Shown here: positions 6,737 to 39,946 of the stretch, piece after piece
Numbering within the stretch: the first letter of the stretch is position 1
Layout of the letters: every line of letters starts with the position of its first letter
Source of the DNA: Candidatus Pacearchaeota archaeon
Lineage (GTDB): Archaea; Nanobdellota; Nanobdellia; Pacearchaeales; UBA284
DNA: 62,105 nucleotides
Reading direction: 5' to 3'
Assembly: GCA_038886195.1 (NCBI GenBank)
Contig: JAVZYK010000001.1
Span: 5,356-67,460 of the forward strand
Translations under genes and position numbers: made by a program
Notes under the pieces: generated by a model
Databases searched by the model: none
What the model saw: the letters and a program-made list of their open reading frames with translations, nothing else
Told to the model about the DNA's origin: nothing

Positions 6737-6747
6737 AAAAGGGGAAA

Positions 6748-7509: not shown

Positions 7510-7705
7510 TTAATTCTTTTTTTAAGTTTCTTCTAAAAATAAATTTTACCCTCTATAAAAAAGATTTTTAATTGTAAGGGGTAAATACAAAAATCGAGGA
7601 AATGCTAGTAAGAAATAAGTTATAAGAAAAATTTAAACTTCAAAAAAGCATTTTTGCTTGAGAAAGACGAGATAAATTTATAAATTCAAGTTGGCAAGTT
7701 AATGT

Positions 7706-19864: not shown

Positions 19865-21136
19865 TTATTTTTTCTCTCTACTCTTTTCATAACTTTCTAC
19901 TAATATAGAAATAATATCGCCAACGTCTCCTTTTTCTTCAGCCGCTTTTTTCGCATACTTTAAAGCCTCTTCCTTCGCTCCCACCATAGCCGCAATCCAC
20001 CCAGCACCGTAATAGTTTCTTTTTTTAGCCGCTTTTTTTGCATACTCTAAAGCCTCTTTCTTTGCTCCTGCCATAGCCGCAATCCTTCCAGCACAGTAAT
20101 AGTCTCCTTTTTTATCCTCTTTTTTTGCATACTCTAAAGCCTCTTTCTTTGCTCCTACCCTAGCCGCAATCATTCCAGCACCGTAATAGTCTCCTTCTTT
20201 AGCCGCTTTTTTTGCATACTCTAAAGCCTCTTTCTTTGCTCCTGCCATAGCCGCAATATCTCCAGCACCGCCATACAATCCTTTTTTAGCCCATTTTTTT
20301 GCATACTCTAAAGCCTCTTTCTTTGCTCCTACCCTAGCCGCAATCATTCCAGCATCGTCATACCATCCTCTTTCAGCCGCTTTTTTTGCATACTCTAAAG
20401 CCTCTTTCTTTGCTCCTACCCTAGCCGCAATATCTCCAGCACAGCAATACTCTCCTGTTCCAGCCTCTTTTTTTGCATACTCTAAAGCCTCTTCTTTTGC
20501 TCCTACACTAGCCGCAATCATTCCAGCATCGTAATAGTATCCTTTTTCAGCCAGTTTTTTTGCATACTCTAAAGCCTCTTTCTTTGCTCCTACCCTAGCC
20601 GCAATCCTTCCAGCCTTGTCATACCATCCTTTTTCTTCAGCCGCTTTTTTTGCATACTCTAAAGCCTCTTCTTTTGCTCCTACACTAGCCGCAATCATTC
20701 CAGCATCGTAATAGTATCCTTTTTCAGCCAGTTTTTTTGCATACTCTAAAATTTCCTTTTTCTCACTTGGAGAAAATACTTCTTTGACTCCTTTGACTGC
20801 TGGCTTGACTGCTGGCATTCCTATACTTTTTGATTTTGCATATTCTGCCAGTTCTTTAATACGATCAAAATTATTTGTTTTTAATGCCTCTTGAATCTCT
20901 CTTTTAAGCCTGTACCCTTCCCTCTCTTGCAATTTTTTGTAATCTTCTCTAGCAATATCAATAATTTCTGGCAAATGCTCTTCAACAAAAGCTGTTTGCT
21001 TCTCGAGATGCTCGGCAATTTTCTTCTCTACTGCCTCTTTCTCGCGAAACAATTTTTTATACTCAGAAAAACGCTTTACTAACTCTTTCTCCAAATCCTT
21101 TTTCCCTTTTGTCATCCCTTTTTTTTCTTTTGCCAT
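19865..21136 (-). CDS. Helical (TPR-like) tandem-repeat protein with charged N-terminal domain
   Basis: 423 aa; nine full and one partial 29-aa repeats LEYAKKxAxxGxYxxAGxIAAxVGAKxEA. Confidence 0.9.
   Translation of the reverse strand: MAKEKKGMTKGKKDLEKELVKRFSEYKKLFREKEAVEKKIAEHLEKQTAFVEEHLPEIIDIAREDYKKLQEREGYRLKREIQEALKTNNFDRIKELAEYAKSKSIGMPAVKPAVKGVKEVFSPSEKKEILEYAKKLAEKGYYYDAGMIAASVGAKEEALEYAKKAAEEKGWYDKAGRIAARVGAKKEALEYAKKLAEKGYYYDAGMIAASVGAKEEALEYAKKEAGTGEYCCAGDIAARVGAKKEALEYAKKAAERGWYDDAGMIAARVGAKKEALEYAKKWAKKGLYGGAGDIAAMAGAKKEALEYAKKAAKEGDYYGAGMIAARVGAKKEALEYAKKEDKKGDYYCAGRIAAMAGAKKEALEYAKKAAKKRNYYGAGWIAAMVGAKEEALKYAKKAAEEKGDVGDIISILVESYEKSREKK
19928..20749 (-). repeat. Coding tandem array of 87-bp units (one 90 bp)
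   Basis: Recurring TTTGCATACTCTAAAGCCTC and TAGCCGCAAT blocks; units 1 and 3 identical. Confidence 0.95.
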
Positions 21137-22101: not shown

Positions 22102-22644
22102 ATGAAACTGTTCATGAAAATTGTGCGTGAAAGCATATTTGTTTTAATTATAGCTACGCTTTTAAGTTCAATTGGTGGCATTGCTTTAAAATCTGTAGAA
22201 GAAAGTCTTGTCACCATAGTTCCTCTAATTATCATATTGCCCGCCTTGAATGACATGATTGGAGATTTTGGAATTATTTTGGTTTCAAGATTTACTACTG
22301 CTTTGTATATGAATAAAAAGATAAAAATTGTGGCAAAACATCTGTTTAAAGATGTGTTTTTAATTTCATTAATTTCTGCGATTTATATTGCAGTGATTGG
22401 AACTTTTTTTTCTTTATCAAAAGGTTTTTCTTTTAATGCCGTCTTTTTGTTAAAGATGATTGTTTTAACCCTCATTACAACTACTGGATTAGTTTTGATT
22501 AATTTTCTAATTGCTTTTTTTGCTGGCAAATATGTTTATAAGAAAAAGATTGATCCTGACGATGTTTTGATACCTTTAACTACTTCTATAGCGGATTTAG
22601 GAGCGATGATTATTTTGTCTTTGTTAGTTTTATGGCTTTTTTGA
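22102..22644 (+). CDS. MgtE/SLC41-type transporter membrane domain, second half
   Basis: PALNDMIGDFG and IDPDDVLIPLTTSIADL motifs. Confidence 0.85.
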   Translation: MKLFMKIVRESIFVLIIATLLSSIGGIALKSVEESLVTIVPLIIILPALNDMIGDFGIILVSRFTTALYMNKKIKIVAKHLFKDVFLISLISAIYIAVIGTFFSLSKGFSFNAVFLLKMIVLTLITTTGLVLINFLIAFFAGKYVYKKKIDPDDVLIPLTTSIADLGAMIILSLLVLWLF

Positions 22645-23535
22645 TTTCAAATAAGAATATGCGGAAAAAGCGGCTATAGCGCCATCGCTTGCCGCCGTGA
22701 CTATTTGCCTTAGTGTCTTTTTTCTTATGTCGCCCGCTGCGAAAATGCCTTTAATATTTGTTTCCATCGCCTGGTTTGTTAAAATGAATCCTTCTTTGTC
22801 TTTTTGTATCGGTATTTTTTTTAAAAAATAGGTAACAGGAACATTGCCAATTTCTATAAAAATGCCTTGAACGTTAAGTTTCTTTTTATTATTTAAAATT
22901 ATAGATTCAACGAAATTTTTTCCTTTAATTTCTTTAATTCCAGAATTGTAAAGAATTTTAATTTTCTTATTTTTTTTCAATCTTTCAATTTGAATCGGTT
23001 CTGCTTTTAATTCTTTACCTCTATAAATTAGATAGATTTTTTTTGCATATTCTGCCAAAAGCAAAGCGCTCATAACAGCAGAATTGCCGCCACCAATTAC
23101 AGCCACGATTTTATTTTTAAACAAAGGAGCATCACAAGTTGCGCAATAAGAAACGCCTTTGCCAATAAATTTTTCTTCATTGGGAATATTAAGTTTTTTT
23201 CTTTCAGTTCCAGAAGCCAAAATTATTGTCTTTGTTTTGTATATTTTGTTTCCTGTGACAACAAGAAAGTATTTTCTTTTTTTTATTTCTTTAACTTCTT
23301 CTTTAATTATTCTAATATTGAATGTCTTGGCTTGGTCTTCTATTCTTTTTAGCAATTCCATTCCAGAAATGTTTGGAAAGCCAGGATAGTTTTCAATTTT
23401 ATGAGCATAAAAAGCTAGACCAAGTCCTTTGGTTATAACCAATGTTTTTAATTTATATCTTGTTGCATAGATTGCTGCTGTTAGGCCGGCGGGACCGGAG
23501 CCTATAATAATTAAATCATAAATCTCAAATCTCAT
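22630..23535 (-). CDS. trxB: Thioredoxin reductase
   Basis: GSGPAG, GVSYCATCD, GGGNSA, FAAGD. Confidence 0.95.
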   Translation of the reverse strand: MRFEIYDLIIIGSGPAGLTAAIYATRYKLKTLVITKGLGLAFYAHKIENYPGFPNISGMELLKRIEDQAKTFNIRIIKEEVKEIKKRKYFLVVTGNKIYKTKTIILASGTERKKLNIPNEEKFIGKGVSYCATCDAPLFKNKIVAVIGGGNSAVMSALLLAEYAKKIYLIYRGKELKAEPIQIERLKKNKKIKILYNSGIKEIKGKNFVESIILNNKKKLNVQGIFIEIGNVPVTYFLKKIPIQKDKEGFILTNQAMETNIKGIFAAGDIRKKTLRQIVTAASDGAIAAFSAYSYLKSKKP

Positions 23536-23550
23536 TTTTTATTTCTTCTT

Positions 23551-23793
23551 TTACTTATATCTTAAAGATGTAAATAAGTATATTAGAGCAAGGCAGGCCC
23601 AAATTATGAATAAAACTGCAGAAGGCCAAGCGTCGTTGACTATAGAATTAATAACAATTCCTATAGCGCCTATAAAATTCAAGGTTTGATAAAGCCTTGA
23701 ATTTGGTTGTATTTGTTTTGTTGTAACAAGCAAATATGCTATCAAAATTAAAGCCATGCCAGCCCAGCCAATTATTGATATTATCGATACCAT
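23551..23793 (-). CDS. Small 3-TM membrane protein (CBU_0592-like)
   Basis: IGWAG..LILIAY...YQTLNFIGA...AWPS. Confidence 0.7.
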   Translation of the reverse strand: MVSIISIIGWAGMALILIAYLLVTTKQIQPNSRLYQTLNFIGAIGIVINSIVNDAWPSAVLFIIWACLALIYLFTSLRYK

Positions 23794-23848
23794 TTTTTTA
23801 TCTTATTTTTTATTTTTTTAAATTTTTTTATAATTAAATGAACTTCAT

Positions 23849-24550
23849 TTAATAAAGCCAGCCAAACAATAAAGCAAGGCCTATAATTACCAATATTATG
23901 CCCGCTATAAGATGAAGCACTCTTATGTTTCTTTCACGCCATCCATATACTACATCTATTGTTGTAAATCCGAAATAAATTATTAAAGTAATTGCTATCA
24001 TAGGAAGCACGAAAATTATATTATATAATAAAAGCCAAGGGATTGTTTCAATAATGCTCAATGGCTCAAGAAGGCCGCAACAAATTATATAGGGTCCCAT
24101 CGTGCATGGTGTCAAAAATAATGCTACGATTAAACCAGTAACAAATGCTCCTTTTGCTGAAGTTATACTTGCAATTATGTTTTTCATTGTAGGACGCCAT
24201 TTTCTTGGAACCTCGGTAACCATTCCTAAAGCTCCGTAAGCAAAAAAATCTTTTATGTTTAGCAATCCTAGAACAATTCCAATTATTCCAAGAAAACGAT
24301 AAAGCCATAGTTTTATTCCAGCTATTGCAGTTAAACCCTTGAAAACATTAATTAAAACAAGGCCGTAAATAAAATACATTAAAAATATTGCTGCAGTAAA
24401 TGCCAAGCCAACCCGAAGTACTTTTTTTCTTTCTCTAGGATATCGTGTTAAAATTGCTATAAGCGCCAATGTTAATACAGCAAGTTCACATGGATTGACA
24501 GCATCGGCTGCTGCTAGTCCTAAAATTGTTGGCAAAGTTAAATTAACCAT
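23849..24550 (-). CDS. CcdA/DsbD-like transmembrane electron transporter
   Basis: Two Pro-Cys motifs (VNPCE, TPCTMGPY) in a 6-TM protein. Confidence 0.82.
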   Translation of the reverse strand: MVNLTLPTILGLAAADAVNPCELAVLTLALIAILTRYPRERKKVLRVGLAFTAAIFLMYFIYGLVLINVFKGLTAIAGIKLWLYRFLGIIGIVLGLLNIKDFFAYGALGMVTEVPRKWRPTMKNIIASITSAKGAFVTGLIVALFLTPCTMGPYIICCGLLEPLSIIETIPWLLLYNIIFVLPMIAITLIIYFGFTTIDVVYGWRERNIRVLHLIAGIILVIIGLALLFGWLY

Positions 24551-24965
24551 TTTGGTTTATAATGGCATTTTTATATTCTTCTTTGCTTTTTACTCCGACA
24601 TATGTTTTACAATCGATTATAACTGTAGGAACCGCTTCTGGAATTAAATTTAGATTCAAAACAGCTTCTTTATCTTTTTCTATTGCTAAATCGTAGTAAG
24701 AAAAACTTAAATTCAATTCTCGTTCTAATTCTTGAAGTCTTGGAACTGCAATTGCGCAAGCACTACAACCCGTCATATGAATTATCATTATTTTTGGAAG
24801 TTTATTACAATATTCTGATGATAGGATTGTTCCATCTTTAAGTGTTATTTTTTCTTTTTCTTTTGGTTGGCTTGAAACTAAAATTATTAATATAATGATT
24901 ATAACTATCGCCAAAATTAGTGCGGCGTAACCCCAAAAAAGTTTTTTATTAATTTCTTCATTCAT
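24543..24965 (-). CDS. Membrane-anchored thioredoxin-fold protein
   Basis: TM helix, CSAC, AVPT cis-Pro loop. Confidence 0.8.
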   Translation of the reverse strand: MNEEINKKLFWGYAALILAIVIIIILIILVSSQPKEKEKITLKDGTILSSEYCNKLPKIMIIHMTGCSACAIAVPRLQELERELNLSFSYYDLAIEKDKEAVLNLNLIPEAVPTVIIDCKTYVGVKSKEEYKNAIINQNG

Positions 24966-25195
24966 TTTATTTTCAATATTTCTTTTAATTTCTTTTGATC
25001 AAAACCAACAACTATTTTTCCATCTATTTCTGTTACAGGAACGCCCATTTGGCCAGATTTGGCTACCATTTCTTGAGCTGCTTTTTCATTTGTGCTAACA
25101 TCTATGTCTTGAAATTCGATTTTATTTTTTTTCAACCATTCTTTAAGCATATGGCACCAAGGACAATGTGGTGTTGAGTAAACTTTAATTTTCAT
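24962..25195 (-). CDS. Glutaredoxin/NrdH-redoxin
   Basis: YSTPHCPWC, SGQMGVPV, VGFD. Confidence 0.92.
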   Translation of the reverse strand: MKIKVYSTPHCPWCHMLKEWLKKNKIEFQDIDVSTNEKAAQEMVAKSGQMGVPVTEIDGKIVVGFDQKKLKEILKIK

Positions 25196-25196
25196 T

Positions 25197-26198
25197 TTAC
25201 TTTAGTCTCATACTTTCAATCTCTTTTTTATTTAATTGAGAAACTTCTAGCAGTTTATTAAGCTTTCCTTTTCTATAATTAACAATGACTCGTTTTCCTT
25301 CAGGAGCATCTGAATATGACGCTGTTAAAGCCGCAGTAATTTCAATAGCTTTTTTAGTTCCTCTTCCTTGCATCAATGTTACTGGGCCTGGAAAATCTTT
25401 TAGTTCAAAAATAAAATCTTTTTTTGCTAAAGCCTCTAGCTTTTTATTTTCTTGCTCGTTTCTTCCTACAATTATTTTATTCTTACCATAACGGAAATGT
25501 CTTCCTAATTTAAGCAATTCTATATCTCGCGGTTCAATTTTTTTTCTATGTTCAAAAAGATCTCTAAGTCTTTTTGCAAATTCTTTCTCACAAAGTAAAC
25601 AACCTCCGGCAGGTGTAGGAAAAGAAATCTCAAATTTTTTAGCTAGTTCAATTTGTTTTTTTCTTGAACGTCCTTGAATATCAAGCAACTTGTTTCTATC
25701 AACAAGACCTTGTTTCTCAATTTCTGTTTCTGGCAAAAGTTTCGCGCTTAGCGGTCTTAGAAGTTTGCCTTGTAAACCAGATTCTTTTTCAACCACATCT
25801 AACATTTTTCTTGTTTGGCTCATTGGTCTTTCATTAAGGACTTCGCCTGTTACAATAAATTGTGCCTTGAGCTTAGACATTAAAGCTTTTGCTTTCTTTA
25901 ACATAAAAATTCTACAATCAATGCAAGGATTAATTGCAGAGCCATAACCATATTTTGGCTTTCTTATTAGGGCCATATATTCTTGAAACAATTTGCCTTT
26001 AGTACAATCTATAATTTTTAATTTAATGCCTTGAGTTTGCGCAAAGTTGAAAGCACAATCAGGCATGCAACAACCAGTACCAAATGGTAATGAAAAGTAT
26101 AAAGCAATTATATCAATACCTTGTTGTTGCATTAATTTTATTGCAAGTCTTGAGTCAAGACCGCCTGAAAGCAAGGCCAGGCATCTTTTTTTAGGCAT
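25197..26198 (-). CDS. PP-loop tRNA thiolase, ThiI/MnmA-like, no THUMP domain
   Basis: SGGLDS PP-loop, NPCIDCR, TGEVL..RPMSQ, PAGGCLL, GRHFR. Confidence 0.8.
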   Translation of the reverse strand: MPKKRCLALLSGGLDSRLAIKLMQQQGIDIIALYFSLPFGTGCCMPDCAFNFAQTQGIKLKIIDCTKGKLFQEYMALIRKPKYGYGSAINPCIDCRIFMLKKAKALMSKLKAQFIVTGEVLNERPMSQTRKMLDVVEKESGLQGKLLRPLSAKLLPETEIEKQGLVDRNKLLDIQGRSRKKQIELAKKFEISFPTPAGGCLLCEKEFAKRLRDLFEHRKKIEPRDIELLKLGRHFRYGKNKIIVGRNEQENKKLEALAKKDFIFELKDFPGPVTLMQGRGTKKAIEITAALTASYSDAPEGKRVIVNYRKGKLNKLLEVSQLNKKEIESMRLK

Positions 26199-26287
26199 TT
26201 TTATATTAAAAAATCAAGTTTTAGGTTTTTTTATTTTTTTCTTTAAAAACAAAAGAATTAAAAATAAAAATTAGTTTATTATTGAAA

Positions 26288-28096
26288 ATGGAATTAAACG
26301 CAAAAAGAGGCTTGCTTTTTGGAAATGAAGCGATAGTTCGTGGTGCTTTGGAAGCAGGCGTTGCTTTTGCTTCGAGCTATCCTGGAACTCCTGCTAGCGA
26401 AATAGGCGAGAGTTTTGCTAAAATTGCCAAAGAAGCAGGAATTTATTTTGAATGGTCAACAAACGAGAAAGTTGCTTTAGAAGCAGCAGCAGGAGCTGCC
26501 TTTTCTGGTGTAAAAGCAATAGTGTCAATGAAACACTATGGTTTGAATGTTGCTCTTGACTCTCTTTTACCTTTAGCTTATCTTTCTTGTCCTCTTGTAG
26601 TTGTTGTAGCAGACGACCCTGGATGTTTTAGTTCTATACAAACAGAACAAGATTTGAGAAATTTTGCATCTCTGGCGAAAATTCCTATTTTTGAACCAAG
26701 CAATCCACAAGAAGCTAAAGATATGACTATAGAAGCATTTAGAATGGCTTGGCAATACAAAATTCCTGTTTTAATGAGGCTCGTTACTAGAGTTTGCTAT
26801 TCTAGAGCGATAGTTAGATTTAATAAAATCATTAAACCCAAAACCGTTGGAAAATTCATAAAAAAAGATTTTGATGTTAGTTGTGATGTAACTGTTGATT
26901 TACATAAAAAATTATTAGAGAAATTAGAAAAAATAAAAAAAGAAATAGAGAAGTCTAAATTTAATTTTATTGAAAAAGGTCAAGGAAAAGTTGGCATTAT
27001 AACTTCTGGCGCAGCTTATAACTATGTTAAAGAAGCTTTAGAAAAGCTTGAGCTTAAATTACCTTTATTGAAGTTAGGAGCTATATGGCCTTTTCCTTCT
27101 GAAAATGTTAAAAATTTCTTAGAAGATTTGAATGAATTAGTAATAGTAGAAGAACTTGATCCTTTTATTGAAAATGAAATTAAAAAGCTAAAAAAAATTA
27201 AAATTTATGGTAAAGCATTTTTTCCTGAATGTGGCGAATTGAAACCAGAACAAGTTTTAATTGGCTTGGCTAAGATTTTCAAAAAGCCATTAGAAAAAGA
27301 AATAGTTGTTCCGTTTTTTTCAGTTAAGCCAAGATTGCCTTTCTTATGTCCTGGCTGTCCTCATAGGGCTACTTTTTATGCCATTGCCAAAACTTTAGGC
27401 AAACAGCACGTTTTTGGTGGCGACATTGGTTGTTATTTGCTTGCTGCAAAGCAGCCTTTCAAAATGTCTGATTATATTGTAAGTATGGGTGCTGGTGTTG
27501 GCATTTCTCATGGCATTTCTAAAGCTACGACAGAGAAACCGATTGTCTTTATAGGTGACAGCACTTTTTTTCATGCAGGCATGCCAGCTTTAGTAAATTT
27601 AGTTCATAATAAAGCCAATGTTTTGGTTGTAATTCTTGATAATAGATGGACTGCAATGACAGGACATCAACCAAATCCAACTACTGGTTTAACAGCATTA
27701 GGAGATGAAACCAAAATTATAGACATAGAACAAATAGCCAAAGCATGCAAAGTTGATTGGGTTAAAACTTCAAATGTTTATAATTTTAACCAATTATGTA
27801 AAGATATTCAAGAAGCTTATGCTGTTAAGGGAGTTTCTGTTATTATTGCAAAAGGCGAGTGTAGATTAATGTTTACAAGACAAATGGCAAGAAAAGGAGT
27901 AAAATTGCCTAAATATGAAATAATAAAACAAAATCCTGAACTAGAAAACTTGAAAGATTTTGATTGTCCTGCAATACAAAAAATAAAAAATAAATGGTGT
28001 ATTGATGAAAATTTGTGTTGGAGCTGCTCTATATGTAAACAACTTTATCCCGGAAATATAGAAATGAAACAGGAGAAAAAGCAAGAGAAAAAATGA
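26288..28096 (+). CDS. iorA: Indolepyruvate-type 2-oxoacid:ferredoxin oxidoreductase alpha subunit
   Basis: GNEAIVRG, YPGTPASE, NEKVALE, CPGCPH, GDIGCY, GDSTFFHAG, TAMTGHQ. Confidence 0.95.
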   Translation: MELNAKRGLLFGNEAIVRGALEAGVAFASSYPGTPASEIGESFAKIAKEAGIYFEWSTNEKVALEAAAGAAFSGVKAIVSMKHYGLNVALDSLLPLAYLSCPLVVVVADDPGCFSSIQTEQDLRNFASLAKIPIFEPSNPQEAKDMTIEAFRMAWQYKIPVLMRLVTRVCYSRAIVRFNKIIKPKTVGKFIKKDFDVSCDVTVDLHKKLLEKLEKIKKEIEKSKFNFIEKGQGKVGIITSGAAYNYVKEALEKLELKLPLLKLGAIWPFPSENVKNFLEDLNELVIVEELDPFIENEIKKLKKIKIYGKAFFPECGELKPEQVLIGLAKIFKKPLEKEIVVPFFSVKPRLPFLCPGCPHRATFYAIAKTLGKQHVFGGDIGCYLLAAKQPFKMSDYIVSMGAGVGISHGISKATTEKPIVFIGDSTFFHAGMPALVNLVHNKANVLVVILDNRWTAMTGHQPNPTTGLTALGDETKIIDIEQIAKACKVDWVKTSNVYNFNQLCKDIQEAYAVKGVSVIIAKGECRLMFTRQMARKGVKLPKYEIIKQNPELENLKDFDCPAIQKIKNKWCIDENLCWSCSICKQLYPGNIEMKQEKKQEKK

Positions 28097-28665
28097 AAAA
28101 AGAGAAAAAAGAATTTAATTTAATAGTGGCAGGTTATGGAGGCCAAGGAATATTGACTATAGCAGAAATTGTAGCCATGGCTGCTTTCAAGCAAGGCTGT
28201 GATGTAAAACAATCAGAATTGCATGGTTTGGCTCAGAGAGGCGGTGCTTTAGATTGTCATGTTCGTTTTGGTAAAAAAATATATTCGCCATTAGTTATGA
28301 AAGGAAGTGCAGATTTAATTATCGCTTTAGAAGCTTTAGAAGCCTTGCGTGCTTGTTATTGGGCAAATTCTAGCACTGTTATAATTTTAAATTCTAAAAC
28401 ATTCCGTTCTTATTTGACATTTAAAGAAATTTTAACTAAAATAAAAAAAATAACAAAAAAAGTTTATATTGTAGATGCCGACAACATAGTAAAAAAAGCA
28501 GTCGGAAGCACAACAAGCGCAAATATTTTTCTGCTTGGCTATGCTTTAAAGAAAAAATTCTTGCCTTTGAAAAAAGAAATTGTTTGGCAAGCAATAAAAG
28601 AAAAAATTAGGCCCCAGTTTTTAGAAGAAAACAAAAAAGTTTTTGATATTGCTTTTAAAAAATGA
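28093..28665 (+). CDS. iorB: Indolepyruvate oxidoreductase beta subunit
   Basis: GYGGQGIL, ELHGLAQRGG, EALEALR; ATGA overlap with iorA. Confidence 0.93.
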   Translation: MKKEKKEFNLIVAGYGGQGILTIAEIVAMAAFKQGCDVKQSELHGLAQRGGALDCHVRFGKKIYSPLVMKGSADLIIALEALEALRACYWANSSTVIILNSKTFRSYLTFKEILTKIKKITKKVYIVDADNIVKKAVGSTTSANIFLLGYALKKKFLPLKKEIVWQAIKEKIRPQFLEENKKVFDIAFKK

Positions 28666-29489
28666 TTGAAAATATTATAGCAAGAGCGCAAGAAATAAAC
28701 AAAAGAAAAAAAGTTAGAATACTTTTTCTCGAAATGCAAGATAAAAGAGTAAGGGAAGCTGTAAAAATAATAAAAAACAAAAAAATAGCAGAAGTAAGAA
28801 TTCTTGAAGGAAAGGATATTGAAAAAAAATTAAAAGAAGCGAAAGAGCTTCTTGAAAAGAATAAAGTTGATGCAATAATAACCGGGGCAACACACTCGAG
28901 CGCTTTAACTTTGATGCTTTCTTTTAATTTTATTAGAAAAGATGTTAGCAGGGTTAGTGGAGCTTTTTTAATGGTGTCGCCAGAAGGAAAGGTTATGCTT
29001 TTTGCTGATTGCGCCGCTCAACCAGATCCAACGGCTGAGCAACTTGCGGAAATTGCAATGTTAAGTGCAGAGACTTTTAAAATTTTAACAAGAAAAGAGC
29101 CAAAAATTGCTTTGTTGTCTTATTCGACAAAAGGTTCAGGCAAAGGCGCAAGTCCAGAAAAAGTAAAAAAAGCTTTTGAAATTTTAAAGAAAAAATTTCC
29201 GAAATTACAAGTAGAGGGCGAGATTCAGGCCGATGCTGCTTTAAATAAAAATGTAGCCAAATTTAAAGGAGCTAAGGTTCTTGATTATAATGTTTTAATT
29301 TTTCCTTGTCTTGACGCAGCAAACATTGGCTATAAACTTGTTGAGAGACTTGCTGGTTGGCATGCGATAGGGCCAATTTTACAAGGATTGGAAAAGCAAG
29401 TTAATGATTTATCTAGAGGTTGTTCTACTGAAGATATTGTTGCTTTGGCTGCGATAACTGTGTTACAAATTGATGGACAAAAGAAATAG
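28662..29489 (+). CDS. pta: Phosphate acetyl/acyltransferase (short form)
   Basis: FADCA, LSYSTKGS, GEIQADAAL, NIGYKL, GPILQG, NDLSRGC. Confidence 0.93.
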   Translation: MIENIIARAQEINKRKKVRILFLEMQDKRVREAVKIIKNKKIAEVRILEGKDIEKKLKEAKELLEKNKVDAIITGATHSSALTLMLSFNFIRKDVSRVSGAFLMVSPEGKVMLFADCAAQPDPTAEQLAEIAMLSAETFKILTRKEPKIALLSYSTKGSGKGASPEKVKKAFEILKKKFPKLQVEGEIQADAALNKNVAKFKGAKVLDYNVLIFPCLDAANIGYKLVERLAGWHAIGPILQGLEKQVNDLSRGCSTEDIVALAAITVLQIDGQKK

Positions 29490-29512
29490 AAAAAAATAAA
29501 AAAGATTAAAAA

Positions 29513-31054
29513 ATGACAAAAGAGGTAAAAGAAAATAGAGAAAAGAAAGTAGCCACGATTAATGAAAGACTTTCTTTAGAGCCTTGTCCTATAGGCTTAC
29601 AAGGCAAATGTTGTAAAAACTGCTTAATGGGTCCTTGTAGAGTCGTGGTTAAAGAACAAAAAGGAGTTTGTGGCGCAAATCAAGATGTTGTTGTTGCAAG
29701 AAATTTATTGAGATTTGTTGCAGCTGGCGCAGCCTGTCATGTTGGTCATGCCTATCATTTGAAGAATTTTCTTGGAAAGGAATATCCTAAAAAATACATA
29801 GAAAAAAAAGCTCCAATTTATTTATACAAATTGTGGCAAGAACTTGGGATTGTGCCAGTGATTCATTTTGAACATTTTAAAGACATAAGCGAAGCTTTGC
29901 ACGCTTCAACAATGGGCGTAGATGCTGATTATACTAGCATTTTAAAAAGAACAATGAGAATGGGGATTGTTGATGGTTATTATGGATTGTATCTTGCTAC
30001 AGAACTAGAAGATGAAACTTATGGAAAGCCTAACATTAAAAAAGGAATGCTTGATCTCGGAGTTATTAAAAAAGATAAAGTTAACATAGCAGTTCATGGT
30101 CACGAGCCTATTCTTGCTCACGCGCTTGCTCAAGAATTAAAGAAAAAAGAAAATAGAGATATTAATTTAATTGGAGTTTGTTGTACTGGTACAAGCGTTT
30201 TAGCTCGTTATGGAATTCCGATGGCTGCCAATTTTGTTTTACAAGAAGAAGTTATTGCTTCTGGCGCAATAGAAGTAATGGTTGTTGATGTTCAATGTAT
30301 TATGCCTAGTCTTGCAGATTTATGTGAATGTTATCATACAAAATTAATTACAACAAACAAATTATGCCACATTCCCGGAGCTTTACATTTGCCTTTTAGA
30401 ACAGAAGAAGAGGCAAAAGAAGTTGCAGAGAAAATAATTAAAATTGCAAGAGAAAATAAATCAAAAAGAAAAGAAGTTGAGATAAAGAATGTAAAAAAAG
30501 AAGCAACAATAGGTTTTCACGAAGATAATTTGCCTCTGAAGGAATGGTCGGAAAAATTGGAAAAAGGAAAAATTAAGGGCATTATCGGAGTTGTTGGCTG
30601 TGTAAATCCTAGAGTTAAAGAAGACTGGATTTCTTGTTACAAAGAATTAAGTAAAGATTATATTATTTTAACTACAGGATGCATGGCTTTTAAATTAGGA
30701 CAAGCTGGCTTGCTAGATGGCAAAAAATTTTTCCATATGGGTTCTTGTGTGAATAATGCCAGAATAGCAGAAGTCTTCAAAAGAATTGCAGAAATGCAAG
30801 GAAAACGGATTACAGACCTGCCTTTCTTAATTTCTTGTCCAATGCCTATAACTGAGAAAGCAATAGCAATAGGCATGTTTTTTGCTGCTCTCGGAGTAGA
30901 TGTTCATTTTGGTTATCCGTTCATGATTTCAAGCGATACTACAATAGCAGAATTTTTAGAAAATGTTTTGCGAGAGAAATTTGAAAGTCGCGTTTTTCTT
31001 GAAACTTCACCATCAAAACTTTTACGAAAGATTAAAGAAGGAAATAAAAAATGA
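29513..31054 (+). CDS. cooS: Ni-containing carbon monoxide dehydrogenase catalytic subunit (CooS-like, shortened)
   Basis: CPIG..GKCCKNCLMGPC..GVCG; HVGHAYH; HGHEP, CCTG, DVQCIMP, VGC, TGC, GSCVN; EKA. Confidence 0.9.
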   Translation: MTKEVKENREKKVATINERLSLEPCPIGLQGKCCKNCLMGPCRVVVKEQKGVCGANQDVVVARNLLRFVAAGAACHVGHAYHLKNFLGKEYPKKYIEKKAPIYLYKLWQELGIVPVIHFEHFKDISEALHASTMGVDADYTSILKRTMRMGIVDGYYGLYLATELEDETYGKPNIKKGMLDLGVIKKDKVNIAVHGHEPILAHALAQELKKKENRDINLIGVCCTGTSVLARYGIPMAANFVLQEEVIASGAIEVMVVDVQCIMPSLADLCECYHTKLITTNKLCHIPGALHLPFRTEEEAKEVAEKIIKIARENKSKRKEVEIKNVKKEATIGFHEDNLPLKEWSEKLEKGKIKGIIGVVGCVNPRVKEDWISCYKELSKDYIILTTGCMAFKLGQAGLLDGKKFFHMGSCVNNARIAEVFKRIAEMQGKRITDLPFLISCPMPITEKAIAIGMFFAALGVDVHFGYPFMISSDTTIAEFLENVLREKFESRVFLETSPSKLLRKIKEGNKK

Positions 31055-32016
31055 AAATCTTAATTTTTAATGTAGGTTCAGAAACTTTAAAATATAGCAT
31101 CTATGAAAATAAAAATTTAATAAAAAAGGAAACCATTTATACTAGAGATTTTAAAATTGTTAAAAAAATTCTTCAAGAAGCAAAACCAGCTTTCATTGTC
31201 CATAGAGTTGTCCACGGCGGTGAAATTAGTAAGCCTTGTTTTATTAATAAAAATATAATAAAAGAAATCGAAAAATACTCAAAGTTTGCACCTTTACACA
31301 ATCCTTATGAACTTGAGGTTATAAAATTATGTAAAAAATATAGTAAAGTTAAACAGATTGCTGTTTTTGACACTTCTTTTTTTGTTGATTTGCCTGAGAA
31401 AGTAAAAATTTATGCTTTACCTATGAAAATTATAAAAAAATATGGCATAAGACGTTATGGTTTTCATGGTTTAAATCACGAGTATATTGCCAAAAAATTT
31501 CCTGATAAAAATATAGTTTCGTGCCATCTCGGAGCCGGCTGTAGTATTGCAGCCATATCTAAAGGAAAAGCTTTAGACATCAGTATGGGAATGACTCCTT
31601 TAGAAGGTTCAATTATGGTTACAAGAACTGGCAGTATTGATCCTGGAATTATTTTATGGCTTGTTGAAGAATTTGGATTGAAAAAAACTAAAGAATTGCT
31701 CAATTTTAAATCAGGACTCTATGGATTGACTGGCTTAAAAGATGTTAAAAAAATTGTTGATACAAGAGGCAAAGAACAAAATGCTTTAGCTTTAGAAGTT
31801 TTTTGTTATAATGTTGCAAAGATAATTTGTTCTTATCAGGCCGCTTTGGGCAATATTGATTTAATTATCTTTAGTGGCGGAATTGGCGAAGCAAATAAAT
31901 GGATTAGAAACAAGATTTGCAATTATTTGCCATTCAAGTTTGCTATAGCTGTTGTTAAAGCAAACGAAGAAGAAATAATGCTTGAAAAAGCGATAGAGTT
32001 AATAAAAACTAGCTAA
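31051..32016 (+). CDS. ackA: Acetate kinase (short form)
   Basis: NVGSETLK, HRVVHGG, APLHN, RYGFHG, HLGAG, SMGMTPLEG, GGIGE, NEE. Confidence 0.95.
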   Translation: MKILIFNVGSETLKYSIYENKNLIKKETIYTRDFKIVKKILQEAKPAFIVHRVVHGGEISKPCFINKNIIKEIEKYSKFAPLHNPYELEVIKLCKKYSKVKQIAVFDTSFFVDLPEKVKIYALPMKIIKKYGIRRYGFHGLNHEYIAKKFPDKNIVSCHLGAGCSIAAISKGKALDISMGMTPLEGSIMVTRTGSIDPGIILWLVEEFGLKKTKELLNFKSGLYGLTGLKDVKKIVDTRGKEQNALALEVFCYNVAKIICSYQAALGNIDLIIFSGGIGEANKWIRNKICNYLPFKFAIAVVKANEEEIMLEKAIELIKTS

Positions 32017-32033: not shown

Positions 32034-32501
32034 TTATGAATTAAATTTTTCATGAAATTTTTTTTCTAAAGTAAGCATTTGTTTGTGTTTCTTTTCTAAT
32101 TCTTTAGGAATTTTTCTTTTTTGTTTTTTGAAATAATCGTAAATTGCCTCACTTAAAGCTTGTTCTGCGAGTAAAGAACAATGATATTTTATTGGAGGCA
32201 ATTCGCCTAAAACTTTAATTACATCTTTGTTTGTAATTTTTAATGCTTCTTTAATCGTTTTTCCCTTTGCAAGTTCTGTTGCTACGCTTGAAGTTGCGAT
32301 AGCTGCAGGACACCCCAAAGTTTCAAATTTTATATTTTTAATAAATTCTTCACCCTTTTTATTTTTGCCAACTTTGATAAAAATGCGCATTATATCGCCG
32401 CATTGAATATTGCCTACTTTACCAATACCATCTGCGTTTTTAATTTTACCAGCGTTTTTAGGATGCATAAAATATTGCATAACTTTCTTGTTATAAATCA
32501 T
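32034..32501 (-). CDS. iscU: Fe-S scaffold IscU/NifU
   Basis: GNIQCGD, GCPAAIATSS, LPPIKYHCSLLA. Confidence 0.95.
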   Translation of the reverse strand: MIYNKKVMQYFMHPKNAGKIKNADGIGKVGNIQCGDIMRIFIKVGKNKKGEEFIKNIKFETLGCPAAIATSSVATELAKGKTIKEALKITNKDVIKVLGELPPIKYHCSLLAEQALSEAIYDYFKKQKRKIPKELEKKHKQMLTLEKKFHEKFNS

Positions 32502-32513
32502 TTTTTAACTTTC

Positions 32514-33197
32514 TCAAAATTTTTCTATCAATTTTATTATTTTTTTATCAGCAAGATTTTTGAAAATATAATCTGCTTTCTTTTCTTTTAATTGATTTTT
32601 TGTATGATGGCCCGTTAGGACGGCAATGGTTAAAGCTCCCACCGCTTTTCCAGCCTCTACATCATGAATAGAATCGCCTATAACAATTATTTTTTTAAAT
32701 TTCTTTTCTTTTGTTTCTTTATGAGCTTTTTTGACAGCCAATTTTATGAGTTTTATTCTGTTTGTAGTATGTTCGCCCGTAACTATAAAACGGAATTTTT
32801 TAAAAAGATTTGTTCTCTTAAGAATAGTTTTAGCAATTTTTTCAGAATCTCCTGTTAATATTATTAAAAAATTATTTTTGTCTTTGGATAATTTATCGAT
32901 AAGAGTATAAACTCCTGGCAAGATAAATTTTTTAATATCTTTAGGAAGAATCGAAATGAAATTTTTATTGTAATTTTTAATAGCTTTTGATATTTTTTTA
33001 TTTCTTATACTTTTCGGAATTTTCTTTAGTATTGCCAATTCTGTTAGAACTCTTTTGATGGTTTTTCCAACATAGTCTACTTCATCCATTCGCGCTTTGA
33101 CATTAAAGATTTTTTTAAATGTCAGTTCAGTAGCTTTATTGTGAAATGGAAAAACATCTATGAGTGTTTGATCCAAATCAAAAATTATTAGTTTCAT
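32514..33197 (-). CDS. HAD-superfamily hydrolase
   Basis: FDLDQTLID, LTG, IGDSIHDVEAG. Confidence 0.9.
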   Translation of the reverse strand: MKLIIFDLDQTLIDVFPFHNKATELTFKKIFNVKARMDEVDYVGKTIKRVLTELAILKKIPKSIRNKKISKAIKNYNKNFISILPKDIKKFILPGVYTLIDKLSKDKNNFLIILTGDSEKIAKTILKRTNLFKKFRFIVTGEHTTNRIKLIKLAVKKAHKETKEKKFKKIIVIGDSIHDVEAGKAVGALTIAVLTGHHTKNQLKEKKADYIFKNLADKKIIKLIEKF

Positions 33198-33199
33198 TC

Positions 33200-33412
33200 T
33201 TACTTTGCTTTTTTATTTAACTTCTTAAGAAGTTTATTAACATTTATTCCATGAGCTTTACAACCTTGTTCAATTGTTTCTTGCATTGACATCGGACAGC
33301 CAACACACATCATTCCTTCTTCTAATAACATTTTCGAAGCCTCTGGATATTCTTTTAGAAGTTGTGAGAATGTCATCTCTTTTGTTATTTTTTGTTTTTT
33401 TTCTTTTTTCAT
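33200..33412 (-). CDS. DUF1858-type redox/disulfide domain protein
   Basis: ITKEMT..YPE..GMMCVGCP...ETIEQGC..HG. Confidence 0.85.
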   Translation of the reverse strand: MKKEKKQKITKEMTFSQLLKEYPEASKMLLEEGMMCVGCPMSMQETIEQGCKAHGINVNKLLKKLNKKAK

Positions 33413-33414
33413 CT

Positions 33415-34059
33415 TTAAAATTTCCTTTTGCTTTTTATCTTTTTTATAATTGTTTTCAGCGCATAATAGCTGCTTCCAAAAATTATAACTCCCGGTATTA
33501 AAGCAATTCCCATTGTTGGAGCCAGAGCAATTGCACCTATTGTTCCTAAAAAACCCGCGCCTATGCTTTCTAGAATGTTGGCTATTTTAGGAACGTCTTT
33601 TTCTATATCTTTTTGTAAAGCATCTATCTGCATTATGAATTTTCCATTTCTAAATATCTTGACTTTGTGTTCTTCTTCTGAACACAAAATTGCAATATTG
33701 CCTCCCTTAGATGCTGTTATTGCCGCAGCATGCCTTGTTCCAAATCCAACAAAAGGCTTTGTTTTTTTAATCATAGCCCCATAGTTCATTATAATTCCTT
33801 CTTTATTGATTATCACTGCTCCATCAATAGTTGCTATTGCTTGTAATGTTTTTTCTGTACCTGGAGTAAGAACATTAAAAGGTTTAATTTCTTGTTTTAT
33901 TAGTAAAGAATATTCTATTTTTTTTCCTTTATTTATCACGAACAGCGCTCCTTCTCCTTTTTTTGAGATATTTATTGCTATTTTCAAAATTTTTTCTTCT
34001 ATTTCTTTTAATCTTTTATTTGATTTTTTTTCTTTTTGTTTCTTATCTTTTTTCACCAT
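33415..34059 (-). CDS. Diadenylate cyclase (DisA_N/DAC) with C-terminal TM hairpin
   Basis: GALFV, DGAVII, GTRHAAA, SEE; hydrophobic C-terminus. Confidence 0.87.
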   Translation of the reverse strand: MVKKDKKQKEKKSNKRLKEIEEKILKIAINISKKGEGALFVINKGKKIEYSLLIKQEIKPFNVLTPGTEKTLQAIATIDGAVIINKEGIIMNYGAMIKKTKPFVGFGTRHAAAITASKGGNIAILCSEEEHKVKIFRNGKFIMQIDALQKDIEKDVPKIANILESIGAGFLGTIGAIALAPTMGIALIPGVIIFGSSYYALKTIIKKIKSKRKF

Positions 34060-35210
34060 TTTCCTAAAGGGCTTATTTTTCTAAGAGAGTTTATTATATT
34101 TTTTAGTTGTTCTATTGTATAATCTATGTCTTGTTCAGTATTGTCTTTGCCTAAAGTAATTCTAAGCGAGCCGTGTGCTTGTTCGGCTGTTAAGCCGATT
34201 GCTGTTAAAACATGACTTGGCTCTAGAGATTTCGTTGAGCATGCAGAGCCTGTTGAGACGGCTATGCCTTTTTCGTTTAGCCTGATTAAAAGAGCCTCGC
34301 CTTCTACGCCTTTAATACTTACATTAACGTTATTTGGAAGTCTCTGCGTTGGATGGCCATTTAATTGAGATCCTGGAATTTTTAAGATTTCATTAATAAT
34401 CTTGTCGCGCAATTTGGTTTGTCTTTCTGCTTCTTTTTTCATATTTTTTTCTGCGAGTTCTATGGCCTTAGCAAAACCAACTATACCAGGAACATTTTCT
34501 GTTCCAGAACGTAAGCCAGATTCATGGCCACCGCCATGCTGAACAGGTTCAATTTTTACATCTTGATTTATGTAAAGCAAGCCGACGCCTTTAGGACCAT
34601 AAAGTTTATGCGATGATGCCGATAACAAATCAATATTCATTTTCTTAACATCAATAGGAATTTTGCCGAAACTTTGTACAGCATCTGTATGAAAATAAAC
34701 TTTATGTTTTTTACAAATTTTGCCGATTTCTTCTATAGGTTCGATTGTTCCTATTTCATTGTTTGCATGCATGATTGAAACTAAAATTGTATCTTTTGTT
34801 ATGGCTTTCTCAACGTCTGCAGGGTTTACTAGGCCGTATTTGTCGACATTTAAATAAGTCACTTTAAAACCATGTTTCTCGAGCCAATGACAAGGTTCAA
34901 GAATTGCATGATGTTCTATTTTGCTTGTTATGATGTGATTTCCTTTTGATTTATTTGCAAAAGCTACGCCCTTTATTGCCAAATTATTAGATTCAGTACC
35001 GCCACTTGTGAAAATTATTTCATTTGGTCTTGCTCCAAGGAACTTTGCAGCTATTTTTCTTGCTGTTTCTATAGCTGCTCGGGCTTCTTGGCCAAATGAA
35101 TGTAATGAAGAAGCATTGCCAAATTTTTCTGAAAAATAAGGCTTCATTGCTTCGAAAACTTCTTGTGCTAACGGCGTTGTTGCAGCGTGATCAAGATAAA
35201 TTCTTTTCAT
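34053..35210 (-). CDS. iscS: Cysteine desulfurase
   Basis: YLDHAATTP, HTDAVQ, SSHKLYGPKG, STGSAC. Confidence 0.96.
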   Translation of the reverse strand: MKRIYLDHAATTPLAQEVFEAMKPYFSEKFGNASSLHSFGQEARAAIETARKIAAKFLGARPNEIIFTSGGTESNNLAIKGVAFANKSKGNHIITSKIEHHAILEPCHWLEKHGFKVTYLNVDKYGLVNPADVEKAITKDTILVSIMHANNEIGTIEPIEEIGKICKKHKVYFHTDAVQSFGKIPIDVKKMNIDLLSASSHKLYGPKGVGLLYINQDVKIEPVQHGGGHESGLRSGTENVPGIVGFAKAIELAEKNMKKEAERQTKLRDKIINEILKIPGSQLNGHPTQRLPNNVNVSIKGVEGEALLIRLNEKGIAVSTGSACSTKSLEPSHVLTAIGLTAEQAHGSLRITLGKDNTEQDIDYTIEQLKNIINSLRKISPLGKW

Positions 35211-38443: not shown

Positions 38444-39946
38444 TTATCCACAGCTTCCACCACTGCCTGAGCTGCTAGAACCGCTGCCAAATCCTGGTGA
38501 TGGATTTTGTGTTGAGAATTTTTCTGAGCAAACATTTGGCTTGCTTCCTTTGAATGCATTACATATTGCATTTGCAATGCTTTGAGGATCTCTAGGATAG
38601 ATGTTTGCTTCTTTACCATCAAGAACGAAAGTTGGTGAGCCTCGAACTCCGTATTTTTCATTTAATGCTTTGTCTTCTTCCATATATTTAGAAGCTCTAG
38701 TTGTCATACAACTAGAAAGTTTATTTTCATCAATACCTGTTTTTTTAATACAGCCAGAAGCGTCGCCAGCTTCAACGAAACATTTTAAGTAAGGAATTAA
38801 TTTTGAAGATTGTTCTTCTCTAATGCAGATCATTCTATTGTTTTCCTCATCTTCTTTTTGTCCGTGCATTGTGTATGAAACAAATCTTAATTCAATATTT
38901 GCTTTATTTTGGAATTTCTCCCATACAGGCAACAATCCCTTTACGGCTTGCAAACCAAAAGGACAATAACTCATGATGAAAACTTGTAATGTTGGAGCGC
39001 CGGGAATCTTTGTGGCAGCTCCCGTCGGTCCAGATGTTTTAATCTTTTTAATATCATTTAAAATTATTTTAATGATAACTTTTTGTCCAGCAAAAGGATG
39101 ATTAGAATCGATGGTTATGTGAGTGGAATTTAATTCCTTTACAAAGCCTTTAGGATAGTTGCCTAATTGTACTTCTTGTCCTATTTTCGGAGTTAATGTT
39201 GTAATTATTTCATTTTCTGTAAATTTTATTTCTAGATCGCCATTTTCTGTTGGAATTGTAGTATTATTTCCCTGAAGCTTTAGCTTTATTTTTTCTGAAG
39301 TTATTTCGATAACTTCATAACTAAATAAGCCGAAAGGAATTTTTTGATTTAACGAAGGCTCTTGACTTATTTTAACATGACTATCATTAAGTTCAATTAC
39401 TTTGTAAGACCATGGAGCGCCTTCTAAAGTATAGAGTTTATTTAATTCTGGTTGTTCATTAAATGCATCGATAAAATCATTTTTTGTTATCCAATTTGTT
39501 CTATTTACTTCCTTTGTTCTATTTTCTGTTACGATTCTTTCATAATAATATATTTTATTATTGTCATATTCGCCATAAGCATCTTTTGCTTCTAAAGTTA
39601 TAGTTTTTGTTTCTCCTTTTGTTAAAACTTCGAGTTCTTTATCAAGCTTGTCTGTTTTAAAGCCCAGGGTTGATGCTATATTTCCTTTGGTAAATTCATT
39701 TATTCCAGAATCGATTATTGTGCCGTTTTCCAATTCTATGTTGTAAGTAATATTCAATATTTCTTGTGTGGCTTTTGGTTTTGTAAAAATTAAAACTAGA
39801 ACAACTATCAGTACAATTACAGCAGCAATAAGTGCTATTAATCCTATTTTTGTCCAATTTATTTTGGATGATTTTGTTTCAACAGAAGAAACGATTTCGC
39901 TAGCAGTCATTTCTTCAGTTTTTGTTTCTGTAGTTTGACCTTCCAT
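38444..39946 (-). CDS. Membrane-anchored FKBP/SlyD-type PPIase fused to a thioredoxin-fold (DsbA-like) domain
   Basis: TM; GETKTITLEAKDAYG...IDSNHPFAG (FKBP halves); FIMSYCPFG and YGVRGSPT (Trx fold). Confidence 0.75.
   Translation of the reverse strand: MEGQTTETKTEEMTASEIVSSVETKSSKINWTKIGLIALIAAVIVLIVVLVLIFTKPKATQEILNITYNIELENGTIIDSGINEFTKGNIASTLGFKTDKLDKELEVLTKGETKTITLEAKDAYGEYDNNKIYYYERIVTENRTKEVNRTNWITKNDFIDAFNEQPELNKLYTLEGAPWSYKVIELNDSHVKISQEPSLNQKIPFGLFSYEVIEITSEKIKLKLQGNNTTIPTENGDLEIKFTENEIITTLTPKIGQEVQLGNYPKGFVKELNSTHITIDSNHPFAGQKVIIKIILNDIKKIKTSGPTGAATKIPGAPTLQVFIMSYCPFGLQAVKGLLPVWEKFQNKANIELRFVSYTMHGQKEDEENNRMICIREEQSSKLIPYLKCFVEAGDASGCIKKTGIDENKLSSCMTTRASKYMEEDKALNEKYGVRGSPTFVLDGKEANIYPRDPQSIANAICNAFKGSKPNVCSEKFSTQNPSPGFGSGSSSSGSGGSCG

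Follow-up and report, generated by a model that had tools for sequence, protein, structure and literature searches.

Introduction

Monofunctional nickel carbon monoxide dehydrogenases (Ni-CODHs) are normally read as CO oxidizers tied to hydrogenases, CooF or acetyl-CoA synthase (ACS). What such an enzyme does in a fermentative operon without these partners is the question raised by a locus of a Candidatus Pacearchaeota archaeon (GenBank assembly GCA_038886195.1, contig JAVZYK010000001.1, positions 5,356 to 67,460 of the forward strand). The whole stretch of 62,105 nucleotides that was analysed is called the window, and its numbering is used throughout. At 26288-32016 (+) it contains five co-directional open reading frames (ORFs) in the order iorA-iorB-pta-CODH-ackA, which encode the two subunits of an indolepyruvate:ferredoxin oxidoreductase (IOR), a phosphotransacetylase-like protein, a short CooS-type Ni-CODH and a kinase of the acetate/propionate family. 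In a preliminary description made from the letters of the window, it was proposed that the CODH acts as the electron sink of the pathway and reduces CO2 to CO.

The comparison with related genomes showed that the short CODH takes the place of a hydrogenase in the operon and across genomes, the latter only as a trend once shared ancestry is corrected for. In our estimation there is about an even chance that the operon is a module which converts a 2-oxoacid to an organic acid and ATP, and in which the CODH re-oxidizes ferredoxin by reducing CO2 to CO.

Organization and integrity of the operon

The ORF coordinates bear out the layout of the preliminary description: ATGA overlaps form three of the junctions (at 28093, 28662 and 31051), the pta/CODH junction is a gap of 23 bp, and the CODH gene lies between pta and ackA (Table 1). 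The iorA frame starts with ATG at 26288, with an in-frame TTG at 26282. The five genes are regarded as one unit because the flanking gene on the 5' side is divergent (25197-26198, -) and that on the 3' side convergent (32034-32501, -).

Chimeric assembly does not account for the order, since each of its junctions is spanned by contigs that come from other runs than the likely source. The segment iorA/iorB/pta is bridged by contigs of other runs (X2 record 2; X3 record 9), the pta/CODH junction in X2, X3 and additionally X6 (another study), and the CODH/ackA junction in X2, X3 and additionally X5 (another study). The bridging comparison also returned many short 'joints' in AT-rich sequence, about 21 bases long on each side, which were taken as spurious.

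Table 1. Features of the operon and of its 5' surroundings in the window
Feature	Position	Strand	Basis
Thiol-disulfide block, context outside the operon	22630..26198	-	Pfam, sequences, synteny
AT-rich intergenic spacer separating iorA from the divergent ThiI-like gene; presumably contains the promoter	26199..26287		
iorA, IOR alpha subunit, 603 aa from the ATG	26288..28096	+	TIGR03336, 663.8 bits (cut-off 650.9)
iorB, IOR beta subunit, 190 aa	28093..28665	+	PF01558, E 1.5e-33; ATGA overlap with iorA
pta, compact phosphotransacetylase-like, 275 aa	28662..29489	+	PF01515, E 1e-73; ATGA overlap with iorB
Short-form Ni-CODH, CooS-type, 513 aa	29513..31054	+	Prismane/CODH family PF03063, E 4.5e-111; 23 bp after pta
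ackA, compact acetate/propionate-family kinase, 321 aa	31051..32016	+	PF00871, E 1.4e-82; ATGA overlap with the CODH gene

The short CODH

The family matches agree with the identities given to all five genes in the preliminary description, with the correction that Pta, CODH and AckA are shortened and fall below the NCBIfam equivalog cut-offs; each of the three keeps stretches that align with catalytic regions of solved enzymes. In the CODH, the motif C25-x7-C33-C34-x2-C37-x4-C42...C53 comprises a type II D-cluster and the B-cluster cysteines. The C-cluster ligands are H197, C224, C262, C363, C390 and C412 and the acid-base residues H76 and K449, assignments for which we assume the residue numbering of CODH-II. 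The ligands of the B-, C- and D-clusters and the acid-base His and Lys did not vary among the 24 family members aligned, and with this full ligand set the protein looks, apparently, catalytically complete. According to the table of Inoue 2019 (PMC6344411), such a signature is of the 'complete' type, as in E-1, F-1 and other groups, and the type II motif is Cys-x7-13-Cys-Cys.

The closest known proteins are two monofunctional CooS-type enzymes, CODH-IV of Carboxydothermus hydrogenoformans (6ELQ), with which the motifs align, and the CODH of Thermococcus sp. AM4 (6T7J). They gave the best sequence matches (E 3.9e-106, the best in the PDB, and 4.6e-98), whereas hybrid-cluster proteins matched far more poorly (E about 5e-07). 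An AF2 model of the window CODH (pLDDT 82.8, pTM 0.85) was compared by Foldseek with Ni-CODH structures, and the predicted fold matched them with TMq 0.86-0.88, 6ELQ (TMq 0.87, E 6.9e-39) and 6T7J (TMq 0.86) being the best. The window CODH shares with both enzymes the B-, C- and D-cluster ligands, the acid-base residues and the type II D-cluster motif; its identity to them is about 35% and it is about 110-120 residues shorter. Compared with CODH-IV, about 55 residues are gone from the N-terminal helical domain (6elq chain 103-157) and about 28 near 490-517. It also differs from CODH-IV and the AM4 enzyme in that no CooF, CooC, rubrerythrin or hydrogenase genes lie alongside, the gene being embedded in an IOR-Pta-AckA operon.

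IorAB, Pta and AckA

IorA also matches PF02775, PF01855 and PF17147 and has a C-terminal Cys cluster. IorB reaches 132-154 bits with the best IorB equivalogs, under their cut-offs of 206-237; an alpha subunit above the TIGR03336 cut-off together with an adjacent beta subunit of the POR gamma type marks the pair as a putative IorAB.

Pta covers positions 102-319 of the 319 of the PF01515 profile, reaches 243 bits with TIGR00651 (cut-off 311) and is without about 50 N-terminal residues relative to solved Pta structures. Its best PDB match is 1td9 (E 1.9e-50), and the NDLSRGC stretch of the C-terminal catalytic region, which presumably contains the catalytic residues, is conserved. AckA covers positions 80-349 of the 392 of PF00871, reaches 279.7 bits with TIGR00016 (cut-off 293.4) and matches 6ioy (E 1.9e-63), its N-terminal NVGSETLK being aligned with NCGSSSVK. 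The N-terminal phosphate motif is present together with HRVVHGGE, RRYGFHG and the C-terminal NEEE, all of which we take to have their familiar roles.

Inventory of the host genome

The genome containing the window (G000) has 645,366 bp in five contigs and is 91.6% complete, and the absences reported for it refer to this portion. It had been called DPANN-like from the window, which proved correct: the window contains an FttA KH domain and GatE-type genes, RpoD has a ferredoxin domain, the closest homologues are labelled Pacearchaeota, Woesearchaeota or Nanoarchaeota, and the genome is small. The DNA of the window is present in hot-spring metagenomes of three studies.

The preliminary description had noted that CooF, CooC, hydrogenase and ACS are missing from the window, and the same holds across the genome. 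Neither ACS nor NiFe or FeFe hydrogenases were found, and no CooF-like protein occurs among the Fer4 matches. CooC, for which a CxC motif is the criterion, was not found either, the CbiA-family matches being two MinD/ParA-like proteins without CxC, SRP54 and a RadB-like protein. No Complex1_51K match was obtained for an RnfC/NuoF-type subunit, and the one Pyr_redox_2 protein is TrxB (CATC motif, NADPH-dependent type). IorA is the sole POR_N match, and no second 2-oxoacid:ferredoxin oxidoreductase (OFOR) was found in the genome, which does contain two small free ferredoxins, encoded at G000:C1:494852-495202 (+) and 276028-276249 (-). The CODH is the only recognizable partner of the only ferredoxin-reducing enzyme found in the genome, and the operon is its only evident source of substrate-level ATP.

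Conservation of the gene order

The neighbourhoods of 34 distinct short-form loci were examined, namely the window, L003-L026 and L091-L102 after removal of the duplicates L092 (=L006), L100 (=L003) and L096 (=L016). The order pta-CODH-ackA, for which a search in other DPANN genomes had been suggested, is not unique to this contig: it was found in four genomes of the genera g1 and g4, that is in the window, L003 (=G028), L026 (=G003) and G048. L026 carries iorAB in the same locus as well. The arrangement persists at 61-82% protein identity. In two genomes, G023 and G042, pta adjoins ackA without a CODH gene.

In L014, L019 (=G025) and L094 the short CODH gene lies on the same strand directly 3' of a different two-subunit OFOR (OforAB), whose subunits are a POR+POR_N fusion protein and a TPP_enzyme_C+PFO_beta_C protein; the OFOR/CODH junction is a gap of 17 bp in L014 and an overlap of 4 bp in L019. 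With the Ior cases counted, OFOR-linked short CODHs occur in 5 of the 24 loci that have at least 2.5 kb of upstream sequence, and these five are spread over three distinct subclades in the CODH tree.

Distribution of CODH and hydrogenases

Among 201 genomes of the order to which the organism belongs, CODH was found in 21, OFOR in 101, NiFe hydrogenase in 13 and FeFe hydrogenase in 42. The 101 OFOR genomes include 21 with CODH and 52 with hydrogenase and none with both, and all CODH genomes of the order (21/21) have OFOR and no hydrogenase. A sample of 281 genomes at the class level gave five further CODH genomes from other orders, and the hydrogenase search, which at this level covered these five, found none, OFOR being present in all of them. 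In total, OFOR accompanies CODH in 26/26 genomes and hydrogenase in 0/26.

The ultraminimal [FeFe] hydrogenases of DPANN archaea make H2 and frequently adjoin OFOR, and the role proposed for them is the re-oxidation of ferredoxin reduced by OFOR (Greening et al. 2024, PMC11216029). The same arrangement was encountered in the sister family f9, where an FeFe hydrogenase gene of 280-303 aa, assigned to group E from its size and Pfam domain alone, lies just 3' of the same OforAB type. In the f9 loci fetched, it follows OforAB immediately in 4/6 and is 1-2 small ORFs away in 2/6; judged by coordinates, 12/33 small-type hydrogenase genes sit just downstream of OforAB. In the small FeFe hydrogenases of L181-L186 and L175, the motifs PCxxK and CxxGCxxG are kept and the first H-cluster motif reads SPCPG, the usual form of this motif being one with a double Cys.

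A tree of the marker FttA was calculated for 48 genomes, with G054 left out (fragment of 109 residues) and G032 represented by a C-terminal piece only. One sister pair consists of G023, which has a small FeFe hydrogenase and is without CODH, and G028, which has pta-CODH-ackA and is without hydrogenase. G062 is likewise placed among CODH-bearing relatives, and family f8 splits into three CODH genomes and two hydrogenase genomes. G038, the sister of G003, yielded no match to OFOR, to CODH or to AckA, which suggests that the module is gained and lost as a unit. The tree supplied 6 independent CODH contrasts from 34 OFOR genomes; hydrogenase changed in the opposite way in 3-4 of them and in the same way in 0, and 2-3 were uninformative.

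The CODH as a proposed electron sink and other explanations

On the reading preferred here, IorAB would convert a 2-oxoacid to acyl-CoA, CO2 and reduced ferredoxin, the compact Pta and AckA would turn the acyl-CoA into the acid and ATP, and the 513-residue Ni-CODH would re-oxidize the ferredoxin with the conversion of CO2 to CO. The CODH would thus do the job of the ultraminimal [FeFe] hydrogenase of the sister lineages, the electrons being vented as CO and not as H2. Electrons would presumably travel on the two free ferredoxins, and the enzyme would have to be loaded with nickel and run, on balance, in the direction of CO release. CO consumers in the community, or the host, would have to hold CO very low, just as H2 syntrophy needs low H2. 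One part of the original proposal has gained ground, namely that CODH and OFOR are partners through ferredoxin, which is supported by the OFOR linkage in three other lineages, by the analogous hydrogenases of f9 and by the 0/26 co-occurrence; the other part, the direction of CO2 reduction as opposed to CO oxidation, is one that we infer.

Several points weigh against the electron sink. As many as 28 OFOR genomes of the order have neither CODH nor hydrogenase, and the sign test on the independent contrasts gives p 0.125-0.25, so that the exclusivity of CODH and hydrogenase is not significant and is a trend only. An upstream OFOR is missing in 19/24 of the assessable short-CODH loci. The score of the CODH with TIGR01702 is 355.2 bits, below the cut-off of 478, a shortfall which fits the deletion of about 110 residues relative to solved CODHs. 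No match to cobW/HypB, CbiM or NicO was obtained in the genome, which bears on the route of nickel supply. The standard potentials E0' are about -520 mV for CO2/CO, about -500 mV for 2-oxoacid couples and about -414 mV for H+/H2. Since the CO2/CO potential lies below that of H+/H2 and near that of the 2-oxoacid couple, CO formation needs very low CO, and the CO2 to CO step with 2-oxoacid electrons would be close to equilibrium. To our knowledge, no net CO-evolving fermentation has been established as a main electron sink, and in hot springs geothermal CO could favour CO oxidation.

In one alternative, the CODH oxidizes environmental, geothermal CO and provides low-potential ferredoxin as reductant or defence, the electrons passing to thiol-redox reactions or peroxide detoxification and the placement near pta and ackA reflecting co-regulation. 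A role of this kind has been proposed for CODH-IV of Carboxydothermus, the best match in sequence and fold, and the DNA occurs in hot-spring metagenomes. The commonest context of the short CODH other than OFOR consists of thiol-redox genes: it follows DsbD-like and small membrane protein genes in 7 loci and is followed by TrxB in 3, which also speaks against the electron sink. Glutaredoxin or IscS/IscU genes are near it in other loci, a thiol block lies just upstream of the operon in the window, and an H-NOX gas-sensor gene is directly 5' of one bacterial short-form CODH. However, TrxB is of the NADPH-dependent type, the host genome yielded no link from ferredoxin to NAD(P) or to thioredoxin, and the thiol block may be mere conserved synteny. 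Moreover, where no hydrogenase or other sink exists, CO oxidation would give still more reduced ferredoxin on top of that coming from IOR, and it leaves unexplained both the placement behind two OFOR types and the exchange with hydrogenase. We regard this alternative as unlikely. A decidedly unlikely one is that the operon runs in reverse for anabolism, AckA and Pta activating scavenged acids and the CODH supplying CO-derived ferredoxin with which IOR acts as a 2-oxoacid synthase for the keto precursors of amino acids. All four enzyme types are reversible, CO is among the few simple donors low enough for reductive carboxylation without energy coupling, IOR is anabolic in methanogens, the habitat is one of hot springs, and the gene linkage fits this reading equally well. 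Such an operation would nevertheless cost ATP in the organism's only evident site of substrate-level ATP formation, the overall reaction is unfavourable at trace CO, and aryl acids are not known as substrates of AckA. The hydrogenase analogy points instead to a sink, because the FeFe hydrogenase behind OforAB cannot drive OFOR backwards with H2.

The low TIGR01702 score, the deletion of about 110 residues and the absence of CooC and of nickel-handling matches in the host genome would also suit a protein that handles neither CO nor CO2 in vivo, but has a nickel-free C-cluster and performs hydroxylamine or NO chemistry like hybrid-cluster proteins, or serves as an Fe-S electron carrier; C-cluster variants of CODH are described as gaining hydroxylamine reductase activity (Inoue 2019, PMC6344411). 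This is very unlikely, as all Ni-CODH signature residues are invariant in the family, whereas clades B, C, D and G have substitutions that mark divergent chemistry. Hybrid-cluster proteins, too, match far worse (E 5e-07 against 4e-106), and CODHs have been produced without CooC according to PDB titles (6t7j, 6onc). Finally, the position between pta and ackA might be a neutral rearrangement in one small clade with no functional coupling, given that it is confined to 4 genomes of 2 genera, that the relatives G023 and G042 have pta-ackA without CODH, and that short-CODH neighbourhoods vary widely. That is highly improbable in view of the start-stop overlap with ackA, the short gap to pta and the small size of the genome, which suggest co-transcription and translational coupling. 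The retention of the arrangement over the range of protein identity given above, the independent CODH-OFOR linkage in three other lineages and the presence of OFOR in every CODH-bearing genome likewise argue against neutrality.

Comparison with known systems and significance

A close parallel to the proposed electron sink is offered by the pairs of OFOR and group E [FeFe] hydrogenase in Nanoarchaeota (PMC11216029), which share with the operon the host lineage, the two-subunit OFOR family and the downstream position. In both cases a miniaturized enzyme appears as the sole candidate for the re-oxidation of ferredoxin, and the two have a complementary distribution; the difference is that the short enzyme here is a Ni-CODH, whose product would be CO, not H2.

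CO formation from 2-oxoacid electrons has bacterial precedents. In the CO cycling which Voordouw reportedly described in 2002 for Desulfovibrio vulgaris, CO arises from pyruvate-derived electrons and CO2 via a Ni-CODH, and in acetogens the coupling of pyruvate:ferredoxin oxidoreductase to CODH likewise forms CO from pyruvate electrons and CO2. In these organisms, however, CO is an internal intermediate that is re-oxidized by a hydrogenase-linked CODH or used by ACS, and neither partner was found in the host genome.

The mini-CooS of Thermosinus carboxydivorans in clade G (Techtmann 2012, PMC3328121; Inoue 2022, PMC8776680) is also shortened, to a printed length of 482 or 428 aa, as the result of numerous deletions; it keeps all cluster ligands and adjoins cooF in a carboxydotrophic bacterium. 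The window CODH does not have the G-1 signature, which combines a type III D-cluster with Thr at Cys1 of the C-cluster and Tyr at the acid-base His: its motif is of type II, and it has Cys and His in place of Thr and Tyr.

In the DPANN and CODH literature searched, as far as the covered text goes, there is no mention of the operon or of a CODH electron sink in DPANN archaea; supplementary tables lay outside that text and might list the family or its contexts. PMC9723730, in the part consulted, merely lists cdhAB in three Woesearchaeota metagenome-assembled genomes (MAGs). What is described here is a known enzyme family, miniaturized, in a new and testable physiological role. If the CODH is indeed the sink, fermentation would have CO as an end product and CO would serve as a syntrophic currency, which would bear on the redox balance of DPANN archaea and on their ties to hosts; anoxic sediments, aquifers and hot springs would contain a new biological source of CO. 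The short forms, as the smallest CODHs so far known to have a full ligand set, would then also be candidate CO2-reduction catalysts. It is tempting to speculate, as a tentative extension that we hold somewhat less probable than not, that in hydrogenase-free Nanoarchaeota a miniature Ni-CODH is the terminal electron sink and the fermentation of amino acids or 2-oxoacids releases CO in place of H2, so that these episymbionts would rely on the interspecies transfer of CO to hosts or neighbours that consume it, and CO would be a currency parallel to H2 in anoxic food webs.

The short-CODH family

Relatives of about 500 aa form more than 100 clusters at 90% identity, mostly from DPANN MAGs, and many of the NCBI records are annotated as 'hypothetical protein'. 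The family may have been missed in DPANN metabolic surveys because its scores lie below annotation cut-offs. In a tree of 90 CODHs, 35 short forms stand on one side of a branch with 100% SH-aLRT support. A few bacterial short CODHs (Elusimicrobia, Fibrobacteres, Bacteroidetes; L020-L024) are nested among the archaeal ones, which suggests transfer between archaea and bacteria within a DPANN clade of this unrooted tree. The bacterial loci share no context, the neighbours including a methyltransferase DNA-binding domain protein, T2SS-F, PAS kinase, H-NOX and Roadblock genes. In L024, from a Bacteroidetes MAG, the H-NOX haem-NO-binding gene (6378-6902, +) lies 32 bp 5' of the short CODH gene (6935-8512) on the same strand.

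Sequences under 550 aa were left out by Inoue 2019 (PMC6344411), and 'clade H' of Inoue 2022 (PMC8776680) consists of sequences earlier excluded by selection criteria that include length. Going by these descriptions, the short-CODH family of DPANN archaea may be clade H.

A second type of CODH, longer (open frames of 634-744 aa) and with about 40% identity to the short form, was seen in other Nanoarchaeia genomes that have OFOR and no hydrogenase (G002:C2:89117-90580, G006:C25, G203:C14, G213:C23, G228:C19). In-frame stops were noted in the CODH matches of G048:C49:23429-24934 (1 TAA) and G026:C1:6755-8284 (2 TGA), and could reflect decay, sequencing errors or recoding.

Neighbouring genes and other observations

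The thiol-disulfide block upstream of the operon contains genes for TrxB (CATC), a membrane protein of 80 aa, a CcdA/DsbD-like protein, a membrane-anchored thioredoxin-like protein (CSAC), glutaredoxin and ThiI/NFACT-R. It is syntenic with the short CODH in at least eight other DPANN loci, namely L007, L008, L015, L017, L093, L101, L102 and L180. In L017 the order is ThiI, c5, c2, DsbD-like, CODH, TrxB, which suggests that the CODH gene moved out of the thiol block in the lineage of the window. The gene of 80-91 aa that precedes CODH in 7 loci was considered as a nickel chaperone and rejected, its product being a membrane protein that is poor in Cys and matches no Pfam family.

On the 3' side (32034-35210, -) the operon is followed by genes for an IscU/NifU-like protein, a HAD hydrolase, a protein with a DisA-type diadenylate cyclase domain and a cysteine desulfurase; IscS and IscU are also found near the short CODH in L006 and L025.

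Elsewhere in the window, a giant ORF (54260-62104, +), which exceeds 2615 aa, is open at the window's end, and ORFs of 423, 500 and 772 aa at 19865-21136 (-), 38444-39946 (-) and 42262-44580 (+) have no Pfam match at E 1e-5. In G032 (G032:C31:49507-52902), FttA (aCPSF1) lies in a single frame of 1133 aa with a match split between residues 1-243 and 234-629, and the large in-frame insertion is possibly an intein.

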